This document shows positions 1,234 to 19,672 of a stretch of 34,050 bases of DNA, one piece after another. The notes beneath the pieces were generated by a model. The model searched no databases. It was not told the origin of the DNA and saw only the letters and a program-made list of their open reading frames with translations. The position numbers and the translations under genes were made by a program. Origin of the DNA: a virus (Duplodnaviria; Heunggongvirae; Uroviricota; Caudoviricetes); the IMG/VR virus record IMGVR_UViG_3300047159_000064; one strand, 5' to 3'. How positions within the stretch are numbered: the first letter of the stretch is position 1; every line of letters starts with the position of its first letter.

Positions 1234-2067
1234 TTAACTATTTCTTTTAAATACGTGTTTACCTAAACTATCTTTATAATAACTAACTGTATCTTTAATT
1301 TGATGTCTAGTTAAGCCAGTAAATTTCTCTACTTTTGCTTGCCAACCATACTTGGTTAAATCAATTCCAGAATTTATTATTAATTCCTTTCTTCTTTCTA
1401 ATTCTTTAAAGCCAAGCTTAGTAGAAGTTATTTTTCCTTCTTTATCAACTTGCCCATTATTAATTTTTTCAATTAATTCGGCTGGCTGATGCTTATAAAT
1501 TCCTTGGTGCGAGGTAGGAGATTTGAACTCCTGCTCTATTTTAGAAGCAAGGTTTGAGCTTGCCGCGTCTACCAATTCCGCCAACCTCGCTTGTTTTTCA
1601 AGACGTTGTTGATGAGTTTTAACATTTTTGCCACAAAAATTTTCAGTAAATGCATGACAATTTGGGCAGAGAATTTGCAAATTATCTAATTGATTATTTA
1701 ATTTATCTCCATCAATATGATGTAATTCTAATGGAGCTTCTTTATCTAACCAATGTGTAATTCCGCAGCATTCACAACGTTTTTCCTTGTAGCCTTCTTT
1801 AAATAATTTTTCTTTTAAAGTGCCAGATTTAATTTTACTGCCATACTTTAGATAATTTATAGCTGGAATATATTCATGCCCACCCTGTTTCTGTTCTGCT
1901 GTTCTTTTTCCTTGTTGACCTCTGTAATTAATATTTAATTCTTTTAAATACTTAACCAATGTTTCTTGTTTACAATTTAATTGCTTTGCAATATTACAGA
2001 GTGGTTCATTTTTAGCAACTAGCTCTAATATTTTATCTTTTTGGCTTAAAATATCTTTTCTATTCAT
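1234..2067 (-). CDS. HNH homing-type endonuclease
   Basis: CECCG...ELHHIDGDKLNNQLDNLQILCPNCH zinc/HNH motif; HTH-like N-terminus; AT-rich; likely start ATG 2067 after AGGAG. Confidence 0.9.
   Translation of the reverse strand: MNRKDILSQKDKILELVAKNEPLCNIAKQLNCKQETLVKYLKELNINYRGQQGKRTAEQKQGGHEYIPAINYLKYGSKIKSGTLKEKLFKEGYKEKRCECCGITHWLDKEAPLELHHIDGDKLNNQLDNLQILCPNCHAFTENFCGKNVKTHQQRLEKQARLAELVDAASSNLASKIEQEFKSPTSHQGIYKHQPAELIEKINNGQVDKEGKITSTKLGFKELERRKELIINSGIDLTKYGWQAKVEKFTGLTRHQIKDTVSYYKDSLGKHVFKRNS
1505..1590 (-). tRNA. tRNA-Leu(CAA), nested inside the HNH ORF
   Basis: GCGAGGT/ACCTCGC acceptor, A-CCA, Leu-type D loop GGCGGAATTGGTAGACGC, GCAAG-CTCAAAC-CTTGC anticodon arm, long variable arm. 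Confidence 0.9.
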
Positions 2068-2146
2068 AAATACTCCTATTATATTAAAATTTAGCAAATA
2101 TTTGGTAGAAGTATTTACAAATTTTCAATTGCCTCTGCCAGTTGGA

Positions 2147-2443
2147 TTAGAAAGGCAGCTTCATCTCAGGCGTTCCGCCCGATACCGTCTTTATGCCCAA
2201 TCCGCACAACGTTATGCTGCTGATGTTGCTTTCCACGTAAGACGGGATGACATGGCTTTCGTCGCATACCGTTCCGTTGATCGTCATCTTCACAGACGCG
2301 CCGTCTAAGCACAGCCACTTGTTGGCCAGATCCACAGGCGTCATCGCCGAGATGATTATCTCGTAGTCCGAGAAATTTCCAGGCATCGCGTCGCCGTCTT
2401 TCATGAATACCGACGACGTTCCTTTTATGGCTATTCTGTACAT
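2147..2443 (-). CDS. Hypothetical protein
   Basis: 98-aa ORF, AAGGAG RBS, TAA stop. Confidence 0.8.
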   Translation of the reverse strand: MYRIAIKGTSSVFMKDGDAMPGNFSDYEIIISAMTPVDLANKWLCLDGASVKMTINGTVCDESHVIPSYVESNISSITLCGLGIKTVSGGTPEMKLPF

Positions 2444-2463
2444 TAGCTATCTCCTTGCGATTT

Positions 2464-2539
2464 TGGTGGGCTGAGTTAGAATCGAACTAACATGTGCGGT
2501 TTTTCAAACCGCTGCCTTGACCACATCGGCCTCCAGCCC
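2464..2539 (-). tRNA. tRNA-Phe(GAA)
   Basis: Cloverleaf, GCGGT-TTGAAAA-ACCGC, CCA. Confidence 0.85.
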
Positions 2540-2544
2540 AAATT

Positions 2545-2627
2545 TGGTGGGTCGGGAGGGATTTGAACCCTCACCCTTTCGGACACGCTTCTGAGACGTG
2601 CGCGTATACCTGTTCCGCCACCGACCC
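2545..2627 (-). tRNA. tRNA-Leu(CAG)
   Basis: Cloverleaf with long variable arm, CT-CAG-AA, CCA. Confidence 0.93.
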
Positions 2628-2635
2628 AATTTTTG

Positions 2636-2800
2636 TGTGGTTCCCAATGGGGAATCACTGAGGGTGTTCCAGAGCCAGCCTATTCCATAGAGATCGCAAC
2701 TTTTGGAAGCGGCTTATATAAGAACTCTGTAGCCGGTTTCGGATGCAATCCTCCCATGCCGGCATGGTACTCTGAACCTGGTTGCGACCAGGAAACATTC
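2636..2800 (-). ncRNA. Unnamed structured RNA spacer containing pseudoknot motif copy A
   Basis: No credible ORF; multiple hairpins; shares the AGAGTA-pseudoknot motif with three other spacer sites. Confidence 0.5.
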
Positions 2801-2804
2801 GTTT

Positions 2805-2880
2805 TGGTCCCCCGTGACGGGCTTGAACCGTCGACCCCTTGATTAAAAGTCAAGTGCTCTACCACTGAGCTAACGGAGGG
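2805..2880 (-). tRNA. tRNA-Lys(TTT)
   Basis: Canonical cloverleaf, CT-TTT-AA, CCA. Confidence 0.95.
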
Positions 2881-2889
2881 TATCGACGA

Positions 2890-2971
2890 TGGTGCCCGAA
2901 GGGAGACTCGAACTCCCACCCTCGCGGATGCGCACCTCAAGCGCACGCGTATACCATTCCGCCATTCGGGC
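2890..2971 (-). tRNA. tRNA-Leu(GAG)
   Basis: Cloverleaf, TT-GAG-GT, long variable arm, CCA. Confidence 0.93.
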
Positions 2972-2978
2972 AAATTAG

Positions 2979-3090
2979 GCCAAGCTATTAAGGTGCTCTG
3001 CCACTGAGCTACGCCCCCATGCTGTTGGGAGCGGCGAGAATCGAACTCGCGACCACCTGGTTAAAATCCAATGAAATAAGCGTTGGCTCT
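2979..3090 (-). ncRNA. YrlA/Y RNA-like RNA with a circularly permuted tRNA-like domain
   Basis: 5'->3' order: T arm (GCGAG-TTCGATT-CTCGC), loop-closed acceptor-like stem (CGCTCCC/GGGGGCG), D arm (GCTC-AGTGGCA-GAGC); ends close as GCCAA-C-GCT/AGC-TTGGC with a bulged C. Confidence 0.8.
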
Positions 3091-3091
3091 A

Positions 3092-3167
3092 TGGTGGACC
3101 TTAAGGGGCTCGAACCCTTGACCTCCTCCATGCCATGGAGGCGCTCTCCCAACTGAGCTAAAAGCCC
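3092..3167 (-). tRNA. tRNA-Ala(GGC)
   Basis: Cloverleaf, G3.U70, AT-GGC-AT, CCA. Confidence 0.93.
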
Positions 3168-3169
3168 GA

Positions 3170-3922
3170 CTCAAGAGAGCTTGCGTTCGGTCCTTAGGCC
3201 GACAACAATTCTTAGGCTCTCTCTAAACTGCTTTTTGTTCAAGCAGATGAACTCTAGCCAGCGATAGGCCGTTGGCAGACCGCCCTTTGACGTTAGGCGC
3301 TTTGTTCGCGCACGTTCTGCGAATGGGACCCTCGCCGAACGGCCTTATTTCAGGCCGCCGGGTAAACATAGCTTTGTTATCTTGTTTACCGACGCAACGT
3401 TATCCCGTGCGTCATAGGGGGAAGTTTTTACGCGCACTTCCAACGATAGGGCTATAACCATGTTGAACCCCTGATGGATTTTTTAACGACTTATCATGTC
3501 GATATCGCAGACCGGGTAAACCGGTCTTGACGTCATTGTTTTAGAATGAGCGATATTCGGCGTCGCCCATTCCAGCGGCTTAACCCTACCGCGGGACTCA
3601 TTCGCGCGAATCGCTTCGCCGAACGATATGGTTTTTAGCCTTGCGGCAAGAGGTTCAAATACCATTCCTCTGTTTTCTTCGGGTCTCTCCCGCTCCGTTC
3701 GTACGTTAGGAGACGCTGTATTAACCTGCCTTACGACAGGATATAGCCTTAGATTCGGTCTTCAGCGGATATCGCCGCCGCGGACTACCGAAAGCCGTTG
3801 CCTTATCTGCTGGCTTGCGCCTTCGATTAGACACCGCCATTACTTTCCCGCTGGCTGAAGGACGAGGCCCTTCGAACGCGCCGATCGAGCGCTTAGGCAG
3901 GCAATCAGGTTTCCCCGACCGC
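3170..3922 (-). ncRNA. Candidate large ornate ncRNA (GOLLD/ROOL-like)
   Basis: ~750 nt between tRNAs with no credible ORF; dense hairpins with GNRA loops (GGC-GCAA-GCC, GCC-GCAA-GGC, CCTGTC-GTAA-GGCAGG); family assignment from recall only. Confidence 0.5.
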
Positions 3923-3924
3923 CG

Positions 3925-3999
3925 TGGTGGAGCTTATCGGAATCGGACCGATGACCTCTTCCTTGCGAAGGAAGCGTTCTCCCCCTGAACTAAAACCCC
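3925..3999 (-). tRNA. tRNA-Ala(CGC)
   Basis: Cloverleaf, G3.U70, TT-CGC-AA, CCA; T loop variant TCCGATT. Confidence 0.88.
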
Positions 4000-4001
4000 A
4001 T

Positions 4002-4314
4002 TGGTGGAGTGACTTTCGTGAAATCACCCCGTGGAATGACTCGCTGTTTCTGCCAAGGCTACCTTGCGGCCGACTCTTGCACATCGCGACCGTTACCTCG
4101 CCTTTTCGGCTACAGCAGCTCAGCCGTCGCGCCTTTGGAGGCTCCCACAGACGGCGTGGTACTCTAATACCGCCGGTGCAACGGCGGAATTATTCTAAAC
4201 ATAACCGTGTTTCTCTCGACAGGACGATTAATTATTTATCTTTATGCGCACATGGCGTGCGCACTCGGGCTCTCACCGAGATATCCTGCATCCTGAGATA
4301 GTGATCGTAACCCC
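4002..4314 (-). ncRNA. tmRNA-sized RNA with Ala-acceptor-like ends (atypical)
   Basis: Starts GGGG, ends CTCC-A-CCA (G3.U70 possible), 313 nt, contains a pseudoknot; no canonical T arm or recognisable tag peptide. Confidence 0.4.
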
Positions 4315-4327
4315 TAGGCGTTTATGT

Positions 4328-4404
4328 TGGCGGGACCTATGGGACTCGAACCCATGACCTTCGCAGTGACAGTGCGACATTCTAACCAACTGAACTAAAA
4401 TCCC
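4328..4404 (-). tRNA. tRNA-Asp(GTC)
   Basis: Cloverleaf, CT-GTC-AC, G-CCA. Confidence 0.93.
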
Positions 4405-4672
4405 ATTTGGTTTTGAAAGTTTTCCTTCTTTACCGCCAACTCCCGTTATTCGCTGCAAGCGCTCGGCATAAGTTATAGGCGGATTTCGGCTGTTTTAACA
4501 TAAGCGACGCGACTCTGTTTTTGCAGATTATGGCTTCTGACGCATGTGCCAGAAACTCATCGCAGACTCGGCCTTATGACGCAGTTAGCATTTCGACAGC
4601 CGTTGGATCTTCGCTCAGAGCATGCCCGTAAAACGAAGCTCCTTCTCAGGTTTAACCGGTTTTCCTTCCGGA
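4405..4672 (-). ncRNA. Unnamed putative structured RNA spacer
   Basis: 268 nt non-coding; long-range stems CGGCTGT/ACAGCCG, CCGCC..AACT/AGTTGGCGG, CTTCG/CGAAG. Confidence 0.35.
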
Positions 4673-4755
4673 TGGTGTCTGAGGCCGGAATCGAACCGGC
4701 ATGGTTTCCCGTGGCATTTTAAGTGCCATGCGTATACCGGTTTCGCCACTCAGAC
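4673..4755 (-). tRNA. tRNA-Leu(TAA)
   Basis: Cloverleaf, CT-TAA-AA, long variable arm, CCA. Confidence 0.93.
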
Positions 4756-4759
4756 GTTC

Positions 4760-4835
4760 TGGTGCCCACTGACGGGTTCGAACCGCCGACCCACTGATTA
4801 CAAATCAGTAGCTCTTCCAGCTGAGCTAAGAGGGC
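4760..4835 (-). tRNA. tRNA-Thr(TGT)
   Basis: Cloverleaf, TT-TGT-AA, CCA. Confidence 0.94.
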
Positions 4836-5382
4836 AGTATGCCAAGCGCTGTTTCATTGTAGAAAAGACTTGGCCGGAAAACAAATTCAATGCGCCTGAC
4901 TTTTAGCGCTCACCTCTGCAAGGCAAGCTACACAGCGACGCATACTAGTCCGCAACAATTGTCATCTCTCTCCTGCGGACGGAATACTCTATAACCGCGT
5001 TGCAGCGCGGATATATTCTAATGGTGGGCTGCTTCTACGTCGGAGAACCTCCCAAAAGAGTGTTCATTGCCGGTCAGCCGCCATATCCTCTCTCCGCTCT
5101 TGCAAGAGCTTTGATACCTTCTGGCCTTACCGACGGCGTAGCCATCGATGCTCGGTTCGCTCCCCCGACGGCGGGGTACTCTGATAACCTGTTGCAACAA
5201 GATTACATTCGGACTCAAGGGAGGAATTAAGAGCTTGCGCTCTTATCCTCCAGCAGGGTATGGCTTTCCATTTTCGCCCGTTAACGCTCATACGGTATTG
5301 GGCAGCTTCTGCTTCTGTCTTTCGACAAGGTGTGAATGCCGTTATTGTTACCTATCATAACCCTTTCGGGATATAACCTGAC
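4836..5382 (-). ncRNA. Unnamed large structured RNA spacer with pseudoknot motif copies C and D
   Basis: ~545 nt non-coding; GNRA hairpins (CCC-GAAA-GGG, TGTC-GAAA-GACA, AAGAGC-GCAA-GCTCTT). Confidence 0.5.
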
Positions 5383-5459
5383 TGGTCCTTCAGGAGGGAT
5401 TTGAACCCCCGACCCCGGCCTTATAAGGACCATGCTCTAACCAGCTGAGCTACTGAAGG
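5383..5459 (-). tRNA. tRNA-Ile(TAT)
   Basis: CCTTCAG/CTGAAGG acceptor, A-CCA, loop CT-TAT-AA. Confidence 0.85.
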
Positions 5460-5523
5460 ATACTTAATATTATACGTTGACGTTATCAGTATTTTTTAAT
5501 GATTCGACGATATCTTATCATAT

Positions 5524-5551
5524 TGGCTTCCGAGGCTGGATTCGAACCAGC
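5524..5551 (-). pseudogene. 3' fragment (T arm + acceptor strand + CCA) of an interrupted Gln-like tRNA
   Basis: GCTGG-TTCGAAT-CCAGC-CTCGGAA-G-CCA; acceptor strand matches the 5' piece at 6548-6554. Confidence 0.7.
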
Positions 5552-5745
5552 GCTCTTTGTGCTATGAACTAAGATATATATATATATCAAACTGCTCCAC
5601 CCAGCAATATCAATAAAAGTTCCAGCTTGACCTTACCAAGCCCCTCATATTTTTGAGTTTGCAACCTCTAAATATGCATGCCACAGCTTCCAGCACTTTG
5701 GAACTAATACATTATACAATGTATTTTATTAGTTATTAGCAAATT

Positions 5746-7075: not shown

Positions 7076-7194
7076 ATGCTTTTTATTATACGCCGCGGAT
7101 CGCGCTATTCCCGATAAAAATAAACGGGCCGCTTTCCAGCAGAGCCCGTTTATCGCGCTTTCGCGCATCGACATGCTTTTATCTTAAGTATGCT

Positions 7195-10791: not shown

Positions 10792-11136
10792 CTATGCGCT
10801 ATGGGCGCCAGAATCGGCTTTCCTGTCTTCATCGTCGTCGTCTTCGACGTCGACTGAGTCTTTGGCCAAGGTGACGCACATTCTACCGTCGTCTACGCAG
10901 AACCCGCTTATCTTGCGGCTTAGAAGCTCCGGGCTAAGCACCGTGTCCAGCGGATCCAAGTCATCGGCGAAATCGGAAATGCCGAAATCGAACCAGTGAT
11001 TGAGATCGTCGGCGTTATAGTAGATTCTCACGATAGAAGAGCTTTGCTTGACGGTGCCGTTCTTGTCAAGCTGAACCTCTTTGAACATGAAATACGACAG
11101 AAATACGTCTAAGCTAACAGTCGCTGTCTTATCCAT
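10792..11136 (-). CDS. Hypothetical protein, acidic tail
   Basis: 114 aa; TAATG overlap with the upstream gene. Confidence 0.8.
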   Translation of the reverse strand: MDKTATVSLDVFLSYFMFKEVQLDKNGTVKQSSSIVRIYYNADDLNHWFDFGISDFADDLDPLDTVLSPELLSRKISGFCVDDGRMCVTLAKDSVDVEDDDDEDRKADSGAHSA

Positions 11137-13349
11137 TATCGTTCGCCTCCCAGGAACCGGTCTCTCAGACTGATGATATCAGTCTTATAAGGATATTCCT
11201 TGGTCTCCTTGTTTCTGTCTTTATCATACAGCTTTCTGCAGAATCCGTAAAACGCGTTCTCCAATGAGTTCTGCAATGCGCCAGTTTTGGCGTAATAGCC
11301 GCAGCGAAGCGTCTGGTCGGCGACGCTGCGAAGTTTCTTCCATTGGTTGTAATAGCCTGTTTTGCACTTGGTCATGAAGCCATCGGAATCGACGAAAACG
11401 AAGCCTTCGATGTATCTGCCTTCGTATTTGTAGTCTTCGCTCTGCATGCCGGAGTAGACGCTCAAGAACTGATCCCAGTCCTTTAGTTCGAACGCTTTCT
11501 CTTTGACGCTGCAGCCGATCTTGTTATCGGCGAAATCCTTAAGATCGCTGTACGGAACTGTGCCGTATTCAAGCTTGTTGTAGATGCCGTCAAGCAATAC
11601 GATGTTGTTTTTGGCGTACTTGATGATATGAGGGTCATGCTCGACGTCCTCGCACTCGAACACCAGCGAGAGATCTGAGCCGCTTTCGTGATAATAGCGA
11701 AGGTACTTAAGCAAATTAGCATAATAAGGCTCAAGCTGCGCTCTGATGTATCCGGCGAAATCTCCGCCCGTCGTCGACTTAGACGCGATAAACAGGCTGT
11801 CGTTTCTGTAATCATAGGACACGATGGCCAAGAATCCGTTCTCCTTGACGTACGCGGTCACCGGGAATTTAAGCTTCGTGCGCAAAGCGCAGAGCTTAGT
11901 CTCAGCTGTTTCGTCGATGCGGAAAAACTTCTCGTAAGAGCGCGCCATGATTTTCTTATTCGTGACATCGATGAACAAGCCTCTGGCGAGAATGGTCTGC
12001 TTGTTCCAATTGCCCTGCCAGAAAGCGTCGCGGGTGAAATTGAAAGACGAAACGTCGGCGTCGAGGTGCTTTTCCTGGACGCAGTCGTTGTTGCGCAAAT
12101 ACGCGATGGCGTCTTCAACCGTGTCGACCTTGCGCTGCGTCGTGTCTTCGCTCTCTGTCACCGGCTGGCAGTCGTCAAGCTCGACGACGGTCCATTTCAG
12201 GTCCGCGGTCAATTCTACCAAACGGAGCTTGCCGCCGAATTCGACGCCGCCTTCGAGATTGAACACCCTGTCGGCGATCTGCGTCGGATCGTCGAAAACG
12301 TTGCGATGCGCATGAACCTGGAACTGATTGTCTTTGGAATCGCGCATCCAGACTTCGGCGATGGTCTGGCTGTCTTTGACGTCTCCGACGCCGTTGATGA
12401 AATCTTTCGTAGGAAGATACACCAAATTGTCTTTCATCGACGGAATGCCGCCGTGGCAAGCCAAAATCTCCAACCCGTTGTAAGTGAAATGCGACATCTG
12501 GCGGCATTTGCGATAGAGCATTCTCGCGTCTTTCTCGCTGATCCCGCCGGCGACGAGCTGCGGCTTCGTCTTCTGCTCGAATTCCAAAGAGGCGGCTTTC
12601 GCCGAATTGCCGAAGTCGCGGATGCTGACGTCGTGATTGCCTTCGAGCAGGCAGACGTTAGGCTTATTCATGATAGAAATGAGCCAGCGAACGACCTCGG
12701 CGTTCTGGTTGCCGCGATCAACGTAATCGCCTAAAAAGATATACTCGGTGTCGTCGGCCAAGCCGTTTTTGAAATACTGCATGGCTGTGTCGTAGCAGCC
12801 GCGGAGGCTTCCGACGAAAACGATTTTCTTGTACTGCGACAGATCGAAGCTTTTCTCAAGAACGGCGTCAAGCTCGTCAGGCTTAATAACCTTGATGCTG
12901 CCTGGTACCTTCTGAGTGGCGAATCTAGCGTAGATGTTCTCGATGCTGTCATCTGGCACCCATTTGTATTCCGGGCGCATTTTGTTGCGCTTAAGGCATT
13001 CGTCGAGCGGCACGCCGGTGAAATCTACGCAGAAAACATTGTACCGATACTGTTCGGCCAAATCTTTGTATTGCTGGATGTCTTTGGTCTTAGACGCGGT
13101 GGCGTCGATGACCGTGAACTCGCCTTTGCTCATGCGGTAATCGAGCATCTCGAAGAGAAGCTTCCATACCTCTGTCTCAACCTCGCGGTTGCGGCCGATC
13201 GAAAACGTGCCGTCGGCTTTCATGTCGATGGAGCTGCAAAGCACGCGAAGATCGTCTGGGCACAGCGTGTACTGCTCGAGATGATGCTCTTTGACCCAGG
13301 TCGATTTTCCTGCGCCAGGCGCCCCGCGAAGAATAAGCAATGTTCTCAT
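11136..13349 (-). CDS. Pnkp-like polynucleotide kinase / metallophosphoesterase / Rnl1-type RNA ligase fusion
   Basis: N-terminal GAPGAGKST P-loop and DAT motif; GDYVDRG and GNHD calcineurin-like motifs; C-terminal KENGF (KxxG) and EGFV..KCK ligase motifs. Confidence 0.92.
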   Translation of the reverse strand: MRTLLILRGAPGAGKSTWVKEHHLEQYTLCPDDLRVLCSSIDMKADGTFSIGRNREVETEVWKLLFEMLDYRMSKGEFTVIDATASKTKDIQQYKDLAEQYRYNVFCVDFTGVPLDECLKRNKMRPEYKWVPDDSIENIYARFATQKVPGSIKVIKPDELDAVLEKSFDLSQYKKIVFVGSLRGCYDTAMQYFKNGLADDTEYIFLGDYVDRGNQNAEVVRWLISIMNKPNVCLLEGNHDVSIRDFGNSAKAASLEFEQKTKPQLVAGGISEKDARMLYRKCRQMSHFTYNGLEILACHGGIPSMKDNLVYLPTKDFINGVGDVKDSQTIAEVWMRDSKDNQFQVHAHRNVFDDPTQIADRVFNLEGGVEFGGKLRLVELTADLKWTVVELDDCQPVTESEDTTQRKVDTVEDAIAYLRNNDCVQEKHLDADVSSFNFTRDAFWQGNWNKQTILARGLFIDVTNKKIMARSYEKFFRIDETAETKLCALRTKLKFPVTAYVKENGFLAIVSYDYRNDSLFIASKSTTGGDFAGYIRAQLEPYYANLLKYLRYYHESGSDLSLVFECEDVEHDPHIIKYAKNNIVLLDGIYNKLEYGTVPYSDLKDFADNKIGCSVKEKAFELKDWDQFLSVYSGMQSEDYKYEGRYIEGFVFVDSDGFMTKCKTGYYNQWKKLRSVADQTLRCGYYAKTGALQNSLENAFYGFCRKLYDKDRNKETKEYPYKTDIISLRDRFLGGER

Positions 13350-18376: not shown

Positions 18377-19672
18377 CTAAAAGTCAGCCGTTTCTTTGTC
18401 AGGCCTGAAATCCCTGAACACCGGGAACCTCAGGCTGCTGCCGCCGTCGGCGTTAGTCGTCTCCTCGAAATACTGCACCTCTATTATCGTGCCTAGGTAT
18501 CTGCCTTTGTTGGCCCAGATATCGGATCTCTGCTCGTCAGAGAACCCTGATCCGACCTTCACGGTCTGCCCGTCTTTGTATCTGACCAAAGCCGCGCCAA
18601 GCGTCCCAGCCAGCCTTCCTGAGCCTTCTTCGAATCCGGTCAGCTCCATGTCGTACGATTTCATCAGCTTCACCTTAAGCAGATCCGACGTGCGCTTGAA
18701 TCTGTACGGCGCCGAGCATACGTTTATCATGACGCCTTCTTCGCCGTGCGCCACGTTGTAGTTAAGCCATTTGATTATCTGAGCCGCGTCGTCGCCTCTG
18801 TAAAGCACGGGAAGCAGATCGAAGAACACGTGCTTCGACGAGCCGAAGAACGAATCAAGGCTCTTTCTGCGATCGTCGTACGGCGTGTCGCAGCTCTGAG
18901 ACACGAACTCGTCGGCAGTCAGCATGTCGAACACGAGCATCTTGACGCCGTGCTTGACGCCGTCTTTGCGCGTTATCATCATCGTCCGCTTGTACTGATC
19001 CTTGCTAGTCAGCGCGCCTTTGTCCAGCAGCGTTATCTCGCCGTCTAGGCAGATGTCGTCTTCAGGCGACGCCTTAAGCTCTTCTTCCAGATCGACGAGC
19101 CCTTCGTAGCTTTGGCCTGCCCTTGTGTAGAAGCTGACTTCGCCTTTGCGCTTGAGCGCTATGATTCGCCCGCCGTCTATCTTCGTAGTAAGCGCGAACG
19201 TCTTGCCTTCGACGCTCTCAGGCCGCTCGAAGTATTTGTTCGCCAGCTGGACCGAGAACGTAGGCACCAATCCCGGCAGCGCCTTGTTTATGCCGTCTGC
19301 GCCTATGCCGAGCGGAAGGTTCTTCGATATAAGCTTCCTGAAGAAGCATACCAACTCTTGATCTCCGCCCAGGACGGAGGACTCGAATTCGCGCAGCGAC
19401 GCCACGATGGCGTCAGATCCGCCGTTGTTGGCTTTGAGGAAGTCCAGCGCATCGAGCGTCGACTTCAGATGCGCAGCCGGTACAGCCGCGGTATCCTTCG
19501 CGGCTTTCTTGTCCGATATGCCCGTTACGACGTAAGGGTTAAAAAGAAAAGACAGGCATCTCACGACGTCGCTGTCATTCTTGTATTTCGCCAAAACGGC
19601 CTGTTTGCTGATCTGCGAATTGCTCGCCGTCATCTCGTCTGCGAACGCCTTGAATCTCTTGAGTGTTTCCAT
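18377..19672 (-). CDS. ATP-dependent DNA ligase
   Basis: KIDGGR (motif I), LDGEI, VFDML, EGVMI, LLKVK, C-terminal OB fold ending SLRFPVF. Confidence 0.95.
   Translation of the reverse strand: METLKRFKAFADEMTASNSQISKQAVLAKYKNDSDVVRCLSFLFNPYVVTGISDKKAAKDTAAVPAAHLKSTLDALDFLKANNGGSDAIVASLREFESSVLGGDQELVCFFRKLISKNLPLGIGADGINKALPGLVPTFSVQLANKYFERPESVEGKTFALTTKIDGGRIIALKRKGEVSFYTRAGQSYEGLVDLEEELKASPEDDICLDGEITLLDKGALTSKDQYKRTMMITRKDGVKHGVKMLVFDMLTADEFVSQSCDTPYDDRRKSLDSFFGSSKHVFFDLLPVLYRGDDAAQIIKWLNYNVAHGEEGVMINVCSAPYRFKRTSDLLKVKLMKSYDMELTGFEEGSGRLAGTLGAALVRYKDGQTVKVGSGFSDEQRSDIWANKGRYLGTIIEVQYFEETTNADGGSSLRFPVFRDFRPDKETADF

Follow-up and report, generated by a model that had tools for sequence, protein, structure and literature searches.

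A tRNA array carried by a virus of the Caudoviricetes (IMG/VR record IMGVR_UViG_3300047159_000064) contains, in the spacers between its tRNA genes, four copies of a ~70-nucleotide (nt) pseudoknotted RNA module. The window that we analyzed, i.e. the whole stretch of 34,050 nt, is part of a large phage, and its 16 tRNA genes, which are all minus-strand and encode their CCA, lie between positions 681 and 7075. The module is a genuine, uncatalogued, and lineage-restricted RNA fold, which is strand-specific and under selection, and which occurs four times inside a tRNA transcription unit. We tentatively propose that it may be the folded 5' domain of four paralogous stable RNAs, analogous to rnaC and rnaD of phage T4, where it would mark a processing boundary and shield the 5' end.

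Four copies of a folded RNA module in the spacers of the array

A first-pass annotation of the same stretch had described a four-copy motif on the minus strand, and every element that it listed was found again in all copies (c1 to c4). As assessed by reading of the sequence and a four-copy alignment, all copies are in the tRNA sense and have the architecture described at that time (Table 1). The coordinates originally proposed are right at the 3' ends, but the conserved unit begins 8-9 nt further 5', at an invariant GAAU that lies 8-9 nt 5' of hairpin A. A covariance model built from the four copies (R1) scores them at 76.6-83.4 bits, compared with 12.7 bits for the next best match in the whole 34-kb window, both strands included. 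The hexamer AGAGUA (AGAGTA in DNA) occurs six times in this window, and four of these six occurrences are the module copies.

From 5' to 3', the module consists of GAA, a helix P0 with an internal loop, hairpin A with a hexaloop YYGCAM, GAGUA, and a stem B of 4 base pairs (bp). An A/U linker separates hairpin A from the invariant AGAGUA. The loop of stem B (6-7 nt) is in its entirety the 5' strand of an H-type pseudoknot, the partner strand of which is found 13-20 nt downstream of that loop. On the 3' side of stem B come GAG, the register of which is defined to within 1 nt, then a small variable hairpin of 2-4 bp, which sits in the connecting loop of the pseudoknot, and a linker of 0-6 nt. The module ends with the 3' strand of the pseudoknot, which is 5-6 nt long (up to 8 in c3), followed by an invariant U.

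Covarying helices and fixed junctions

Hairpin A, stem B, the pseudoknot, and P0 are four covarying helices among the four copies. The proposal of a reusable RNA module, in which two covarying helices form a pseudoknot, is thus supported by the four-copy alignment. The pairings put forward for stem B (CCAU/AUGG, CCAC/GUGG, UUCC/GGAG, and CCCC/GGGG) can be read in the four copies, as can those of the pseudoknot (GCCGG/CCGGC, GCCGUC/GACGGC, GUCCGC/GCGGAC, and GCCGUC/GAUGGC, then U). Hairpin A, stem B, and the pseudoknot were tested in an alignment of four rows. In these three helices, 93% of the cells are paired, changes on both sides occur at seven pairs, and the covariation score was reached by none of 500 shuffles. 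When, as a control, the partner was slid by 1-3 columns, pairing went down to 28-53%. The fourth helix, P0, closes the 5' hairpin by a pair between the U of GAAU and the first A of AGAGUA in all copies. As second pair, c1 and c4 have G-C, whereas c2 and c3 have A-U and, in addition, two extra pairs. The stem B hairpins have computed energies of -2.9 to -8.5 kcal/mol in the four copies, and nested folding chooses either stem B or the pseudoknot helix, which is expected for a pseudoknot.

Conservation within the module is not uniform. There are ~25 invariant positions, nearly all of which are unpaired bases of junctions (GAA, AGAGUA, GAG, and U) or loops, GCA in the hexaloop being invariant as well, whereas 12 of the 20 pairs vary; the mean column identity among the copies is 73%. 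This combination of fixed junctions and varying pairs argues for selection on a fold, rather than for recent duplication. In addition, three G.U pairs are possible only in the minus-strand RNA, which points to a structure at the RNA level, in the tRNA sense. A possible second partner for the GGGAG strand, ~65-90 nt downstream (CCCAU, UUCCAC, UUUUCC, and CUCUUUU), is suggestive but G.U-rich.

Table 1. Coordinates of the four module copies, of their parts, and of the tails that follow them
Feature	Coordinates	Strand	Description
c1, module copy	2731-2800	minus	70 nt; R1 76.6 bits; starts 4 nt past the CCA of tRNA-Lys(UUU)
c1, 5' domain	2773-2800	minus	GAA; P0 U-A, G-C; internal loop; hairpin A CCUGG/CCAGG, loop UCGCAA
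c1, core	2751-2773	minus	AGAGUA; stem B CCAU/AUGG around pseudoknot 5' strand GCCGGC; GAG
c1, pseudoknot 3' strand	2731-2736	minus	CCGGC + invariant U; duplex -10.6 kcal/mol
c1, tail	2628-2730	minus	103 nt, structured, up to tRNA-Leu(CAG); presumed link to the module
c2, module copy	4122-4195	minus	74 nt; R1 77.8 bits; 6-bp hairpin A, 7-nt stem B loop
c2, 5' domain	4165-4195	minus	GAA; P0 U-A, A-U, A-U, U-A; hairpin A CCGCCG/CGGCGG, loop UUGCAC
c2, core	4142-4165	minus	AGAGUA; stem B CCAC/GUGG around GCCGUC(U); GAG
c2, pseudoknot 3' strand	4122-4128	minus	GACGGC + U; duplex -12.2 kcal/mol
c2, tail	4000-4121	minus	122 nt, structured; ends 2 nt before tRNA-Ala(CGC)
c3, module copy	4947-5018	minus	72 nt; R1 83.4 bits; starts 3 nt past the ...CCCACCA end of the preceding unit
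c3, 5' domain	4990-5018	minus	GAA; P0 4 bp; hairpin A CCGCG/CGCGG, loop CUGCAA
c3, core	4967-4990	minus	AGAGUA; stem B UUCC/GGAG around GUCCGC(A); (A)GAG-rich linker
c3, pseudoknot 3' strand	4947-4953	minus	GCGGAC + U; duplex -12.6 kcal/mol; 2 further pairs possible
c3, tail	4836-4946	minus	111 nt, structured, up to tRNA-Thr(UGU)
c4, module copy	5140-5210	minus	71 nt; R1 83.0 bits
c4, 5' domain	5182-5210	minus	GAA; P0 U-A, G-C; hairpin A CUUG/CAGG, loop UUGCAA
c4, core	5160-5182	minus	AGAGUA; stem B CCCC/GGGG around GCCGUC; GAG
c4, pseudoknot 3' strand	5140-5146	minus	GAUGGC + U (one G.U pair); duplex -11.5 kcal/mol
c4, tail	5019-5139	minus	121 nt, structured; ends ...GCAGCCCACCA 3 nt before c3

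Polymorphism in a variant strain

RNA-library contigs from one study, spanning 4847-5371, come from a variant strain. These are contigs, which show no RNA ends, strand, or level, and the libraries may contain DNA. In this strain, c4 has five substitutions, which leave the invariant bases and the pseudoknot pairs untouched. Through one of them (5200 A>G), hairpin A gains a C-G pair in place of U.G, and two (5155 and 5156) are in the loop of the small hairpin. A fourth (5149 T>C) is in the linker and, together with the change at 5164, gives a possible extra U.G pair in an extended pseudoknot helix. There are 17 substitutions in the 121-nt tail after c4. Copy c3 has at most two, and 1 nt is deleted from its GA-rich linker. 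The end of one contig coincides with G5210, where c4 begins; this comes from a single study and was given no weight. Contigs bridging the edges of the module were also considered as evidence, and prove nothing either way.

Database searches and distribution

The earlier statement that the motif could not be assigned to a known family held in Rfam 15, which at gathering score finds tRNAs only. A search of region 2400-5600 with permissive filters and E<=10 gave nothing credible on any copy, the only match overlapping a copy being a chance-level one to the small nucleolar RNA TB9Cs4H1 (E=9, 5151-5192). Hammerhead, twister, twister-sister, pistol, hatchet, hairpin, glmS, HDV, preQ1-I/II/III, and T-box have no Rfam 15 match on the copies. 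The loose likeness to the pseudoknots of transfer-messenger RNA (tmRNA) that had been noted at first was not borne out, as neither RF00023 nor ARAGORN gave a tmRNA match on any copy. A weak RF00023 match is found at 3033-3072 only, outside the copies, and the frames that follow the pseudoknots are dissimilar short open reading frames (ORFs).

The first-pass annotation had pointed to gut phage genomes as the place to search, but the runs that contain the stretch are sludge and wastewater metagenomes, from 14 studies, and 14 runs have at least half of its sampled words. The exact core pattern has no match in IMG/VR. Descriptors consisting only of the invariant bases and their spacings were run on IMG/VR, JGI metagenome contigs, and GTDB genomes; they are strict, and distant relatives with other junction bases would escape them. 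These scans produced ~125 distinct sequence matches, none of which combines a hairpin A of at least 4 bp, all four pairs of stem B, and a pseudoknot of at least 5 bp. A descriptor of the 5' domain only, run on IMG/VR, gave two chance matches and no relative, and a distant blastn of INPHARED phages gave similarity to tRNAs only.

Three contigs that represent this phage in other samples match the stretch at 99.9-100% identity and add no variation. A close strain has ~94% DNA identity up to 5522, beyond which it has nine different, tightly packed tRNAs and no module. This break in similarity is abrupt and falls inside a tRNA-like T-arm fragment (5523-5569). Contigs encoding proteins 94 and 59% identical to a 101-amino acid (aa) protein have other compact arrays and no R1 match, and the same is true of a complete 180.8-kb relative, the RNA ligase of which is 63% identical, and which has a compact tRNA array. 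No relatives were found for a 98-aa neighboring protein. Since the scans gave no fold-bearing match and the relatives lack the module, it is an orphan of one phage lineage. The tRNA array appears to be an exchangeable cassette, swapped between strains.

Organization of the tRNA array

Promoter-like TATAAT boxes (CGTATAAT) are found directly 5' of tRNA-Met (756), tRNA-Ile (5459), and tRNA-Val (7075), where this repeated box occupies 757-773, 5460-5476, and 7076-7092, respectively. The boxes are probably promoters, with transcription starting at or just before the tRNA. Their positions argue that 2400-5460 is one transcription unit in the tRNA sense, with unusually long spacers, and that the module copies are inside tRNA transcription units.

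The array can be read as RNA genes arranged head to tail, four of which are non-tRNA units of ~175-195 nt that begin with the module. The tails of these units stop 1-9 nt short of the next tRNA, or 3 nt short of the next copy. Two of them (c2 and c4) terminate with an acceptor-like helix and ACCA, and the end of the c4 tail resembles tRNA-Phe. The distances from a tRNA to the starts of c2 and c4 are 132 and 172 nt, respectively, and both copies are preceded by other structured spacers, rich in GNRA. A conserved CANYGA in the tails is probably a MAFFT artifact, as it falls in different helices in each unit.

Several other elements of the array are structured. The end of the c2 tail (4000-4032, minus strand) is a 10-bp minihelix, GGGGUGAUUU-CACGA-AAGUCACUCC-ACCA, which displays G3.U70, A73, and CCA, i.e. 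alanine identity elements, and adjoins tRNA-Ala(CGC). This could be either a minihelix that can be charged or what remains of a tRNA-Ala. A circularly permuted tRNA-like element is found at 2989-3058 (minus strand, within 2972-3091). Its variable loop, T arm, and acceptor 3' strand are followed by the acceptor 5' strand GGGGGCG and the D arm, and it has a sub-threshold match to YrlA (Y RNA-like; 39.5 bits, E=1.7e-6). Two tRNA-Ala genes are separated by a 757-nt ORF-free spacer (3168-3924, minus strand) with dense hairpins and many GNRA loops, which has no Rfam match at E<=10. One RNA-library contig of 776 nt covers nearly all of this spacer (3121-3894). The spacer terminates in ...GCUCUCUUGAGUC immediately ahead of tRNA-Ala, and ...CUUGAGUCC, which is similar, is found ahead of c4. 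The 268-nt structured spacer between tRNA-Leu(UAA) and tRNA-Asp (4405-4672, minus strand) has the highest RNA-library contig depths of the region in two runs, and may be another stable RNA.

PHROG matches in the window include an HNH endonuclease (1234-2097, minus strand) and an ATP-dependent DNA ligase (18377-19672). Another match (11136-13349, minus strand; phrog_8238, E=2.6e-194), 6 kb from the array, is a protein of 737 aa in which polynucleotide kinase, phosphatase, and T4-type RNA ligase are fused. The HNH endonuclease ORF encloses, in its own orientation, a tRNA-Leu(CAA) that is complete according to ARAGORN (1505-1590). The fusion, hereafter named Pnkp-RNA ligase, is tRNA-repair equipment, and could also handle ends of the type left by ribozymes.

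Possible roles of the module

The reading that we favor, which we hold as a tentative one and regard as plausible without calling it probable, would be as follows. Four non-tRNA RNAs would be embedded in the polycistronic tRNA transcript, each with a compact knot at its extreme 5' end. This knot would mark the cleavage point of the precursor, immediately 3' of the upstream RNA, and would then protect the 5' end thus created on the downstream RNA against 5'-end-dependent decay, a protection comparable to that conferred by 5' stem-loops and by viral exonuclease-resistant pseudoknots. Helices that have diverged around fixed junction bases would be expected of repeats that keep their fold yet avoid recombination within 2.5 kb. 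The positions of c1, 4 nt after the CCA of tRNA-Lys, and c3, 3 nt after an ACCA end, were counted in favor of a role at a processing boundary. The c4 changes in the variant strain, all outside the invariant bases and the pseudoknot pairs, were likewise counted for this reading, and the layout of rnaC and rnaD in phage T4 (see below) was counted as a precedent for stable RNAs.

Several points weigh on the other side. The link between module and tails consists in spacing only, and the tails align poorly. The RNA material consists of contigs, which show no RNA ends and may contain DNA, and several of which span the proposed boundaries. For the strictly invariant junction bases, an active site or a ligand pocket is at least as good an explanation as a passive cap. 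Covariation is known among four paralogues of shared ancestry and from a few polymorphisms of the variant strain, with no independent phylogenetic covariation, and one of these polymorphisms (5164 C>A) breaks a pair of stem B in c4. Finally, no homologue was found outside one phage lineage in IMG/VR, JGI, GTDB, or INPHARED.

The first-pass annotation had suggested either a processing ribozyme or a protein-binding site. In the latter case, the module would be a site present four times on the tRNA precursor. Its GCA hexaloop and loop-E-like junction would be recognized by a phage or host protein, for instance a processing nuclease, a chaperone, or a ribonucleoprotein partner, which would act on the neighboring RNAs. 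This is rather unlikely. The invariant AGUA and GAA/GAG match, at the level of sequence, the consensus of the sarcin-ricin motif, which is a frequent protein-recognition module, the loop bases GCA are invariant, one transcript has four sites, and the window encodes the Pnkp-RNA ligase fusion and, beside the array, several proteins of unknown function. However, the putative S-turn has two alternative partner strands, and, with the module found in no other genome, no co-occurring protein stands out as a candidate. We give a similarly low probability to the view that the module is a putative new catalytic or mechanically active RNA of one phage lineage, be it a previously unseen class of self-cleaving ribozymes punctuating the tRNA precursor or a phage knot resistant to exonucleases (5'-to-3' or 5'-end-dependent RNases).

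A putative new small self-cleaving ribozyme that cuts the polycistronic transcript around GAAU, at its 5' edge or close to it, is unlikely. The upstream RNA would be left with a cyclic phosphate, which the phage Pnkp could heal, the gene for a kinase-phosphatase-ligase being 6 kb away. Small ribozymes typically have such a size (~70 nt), a pseudoknot, strictly conserved junctions among covarying helices, and several copies per genome. In addition, c1 and c3 start 3-4 nt past a CCA, and theta ribozymes are found within 5 nt of phage tRNAs (PMC10879173). However, c2 and c4 are not beside a tRNA 3' end, no Rfam ribozyme family matches at E<=10, and an HDV-like fold cannot be drawn consistently on the four copies. 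Moreover, the known classes are widespread, whereas the module is without a relative in the IMG/VR, JGI, and GTDB scans, and RNA-library contigs, from libraries that may contain DNA, span every copy and its 5' edge.

It is improbable that the module is selfish or relic DNA, i.e. a non-autonomous element that has spread in a recombination-prone tRNA cassette, with a fold serving its propagation or nothing. The array is swappable, since the ~94%-identical strain has a different compact array beyond 5522, the relative with the 63%-identical RNA ligase has a compact array without the module, and an HNH endonuclease gene is found within the array. However, diverged copies have kept 25 invariant bases and four covarying helices, which argues for purifying selection on the fold rather than decay, there are no terminal repeats or target duplications, and the element is absent from the other genomes searched. 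A ligand-sensing or conformational switch, alternating between stem B and an extended pseudoknot hairpin, is very hard to believe in: its helix order is that of the preQ1-II class, the pseudoknot of c3 and c4 can be extended by 2-3 pairs at the expense of stem B, and the variant pair G47>U/A62>G of c4 (5164 and 5149) would add a U.G pair to this extension, but the extension is absent from c1 and c2, no Rfam riboswitch matches, the 3' strand controls no terminator or ribosome-binding site, and a tRNA operon is an unusual site for a riboswitch.

Phage tRNA operons carry non-tRNA RNAs of open role, to which the module adds an uncatalogued and well-defined fold. T4 rnaC and rnaD are said to be unexplained decades after their discovery, and theta ribozymes were reportedly recognized only in 2024. 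Within one genome, the module has a clear signature of four covarying helices and ~25 fixed junction bases, and its ~70 nt are few enough for direct tests of self-cleavage, nuclease resistance, and protein binding. Were it catalytic or nuclease-blocking, it would represent a new RNA class and a compact punctuation tool for synthetic polycistronic RNAs. Were it a structural cap only, it would still show how phages process long tRNA precursors carrying cargo RNAs. As the module is confined to one lineage, its general importance is limited.

Comparison with known RNAs

Theta ribozymes are minimal HDV-like ribozymes found within 5 nt of phage tRNAs, for which a role in tRNA 3'-end processing has been proposed (Kienbeck et al. 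2024, PMC10879173). The placement of c1 and c3, small pseudoknotted RNAs of a phage genome that start 4 nt after a tRNA and 3 nt after a tRNA-like ACCA end, respectively, recalls this, but c2 and c4 start 132 and 172 nt away. In contrast to theta, the strand expected to form P2 pairs upstream (in stem B) and not at the 3' end. An HDV-like reading was rejected on several grounds. With the pseudoknot as P1, no consistent P3/L3/P1.1 core is left in the four copies. The segment before the 3' strand of the pseudoknot is a 2-4-bp hairpin with a non-conserved loop of 3-4 nt and a 0-6-nt linker, no shared catalytic C heads J4/2, and the downstream GGGAG partners are weak. By eye, circularly permuted HDV-like, pistol-like, hatchet, and twister readings fail to hold in all four copies, as do those as a tmRNA tag, a T-box, or a mini-ORF with a Shine-Dalgarno sequence (GGAG). 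A -10 promoter was rejected, TAGAAT being found in c2 and c3 only, and so was a terminator on the opposite strand (hairpin A plus the A/U tract), which has weak T tracts, is found in two of the four copies, and has no plus-strand genes nearby.

In ~26-43 nt, the coremin motif comprises two hairpins, the first of which has 3-4 bp and a YGAD loop, separated by a conserved spacer of 10 nt (Dilweg et al. 2019, PMC6546385). The elements of coremin/xrRNA-C are absent from all four copies, the module being ~70 nt long with other invariant bases, and AGAC-N3-AAAC has no exact match in the window and matches at chance level with one mismatch. What the module shares with coremin/xrRNA-C is its location, as a small pseudoknot between RNAs from a single viral precursor, and the idea, also part of the reading that we favor, of protection from 5'-to-3' decay.

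The preQ1-II class has an upstream hairpin, a stem, a pseudoknot between loop and 3' tail, and an embedded hairpin. The helix order of the module is the same, but there is no sequence or covariance-model match to this class, no expression platform, and the genomic context is another one. At the level of sequence, AGUA on the 5' side of stem B and GAG on its 3' side (or the 5' GAA) match the sarcin-ricin/loop E (bulged-G) consensus AGUA/GAA (PMC1865062). The module differs from this consensus in that the third base of its 3' strand is G, not A, with the 5' GAA as an alternative partner.

A parallel in layout comes from phage T4, where rnaC and rnaD are structured non-tRNA RNAs of 119-139 nt in a tRNA operon, adjoining a homing endonuclease gene. 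Each has AAU... immediately next to the CCA of the gene before it, then a short hairpin, and at the 3' side a tRNA-like terminus (...GCGCACCA; T arm and UACA). To our knowledge, these RNAs, also known as species 1 and 2, still have no assigned function. R1 gives no match on rnaC/rnaD (positions 1409-1672 of the T4 locus L117), the best score in this locus being 12.7 bits, in segB. The AGAGUA/pseudoknot core is not seen there, and the present units differ in being longer and in having four copies. The proposed units would share the paralogous, head-to-tail layout of the T4 RNAs, which c1 and c3 fit on the 5' side, and the tails of c2 and c4 on the 3' side (ACCA).

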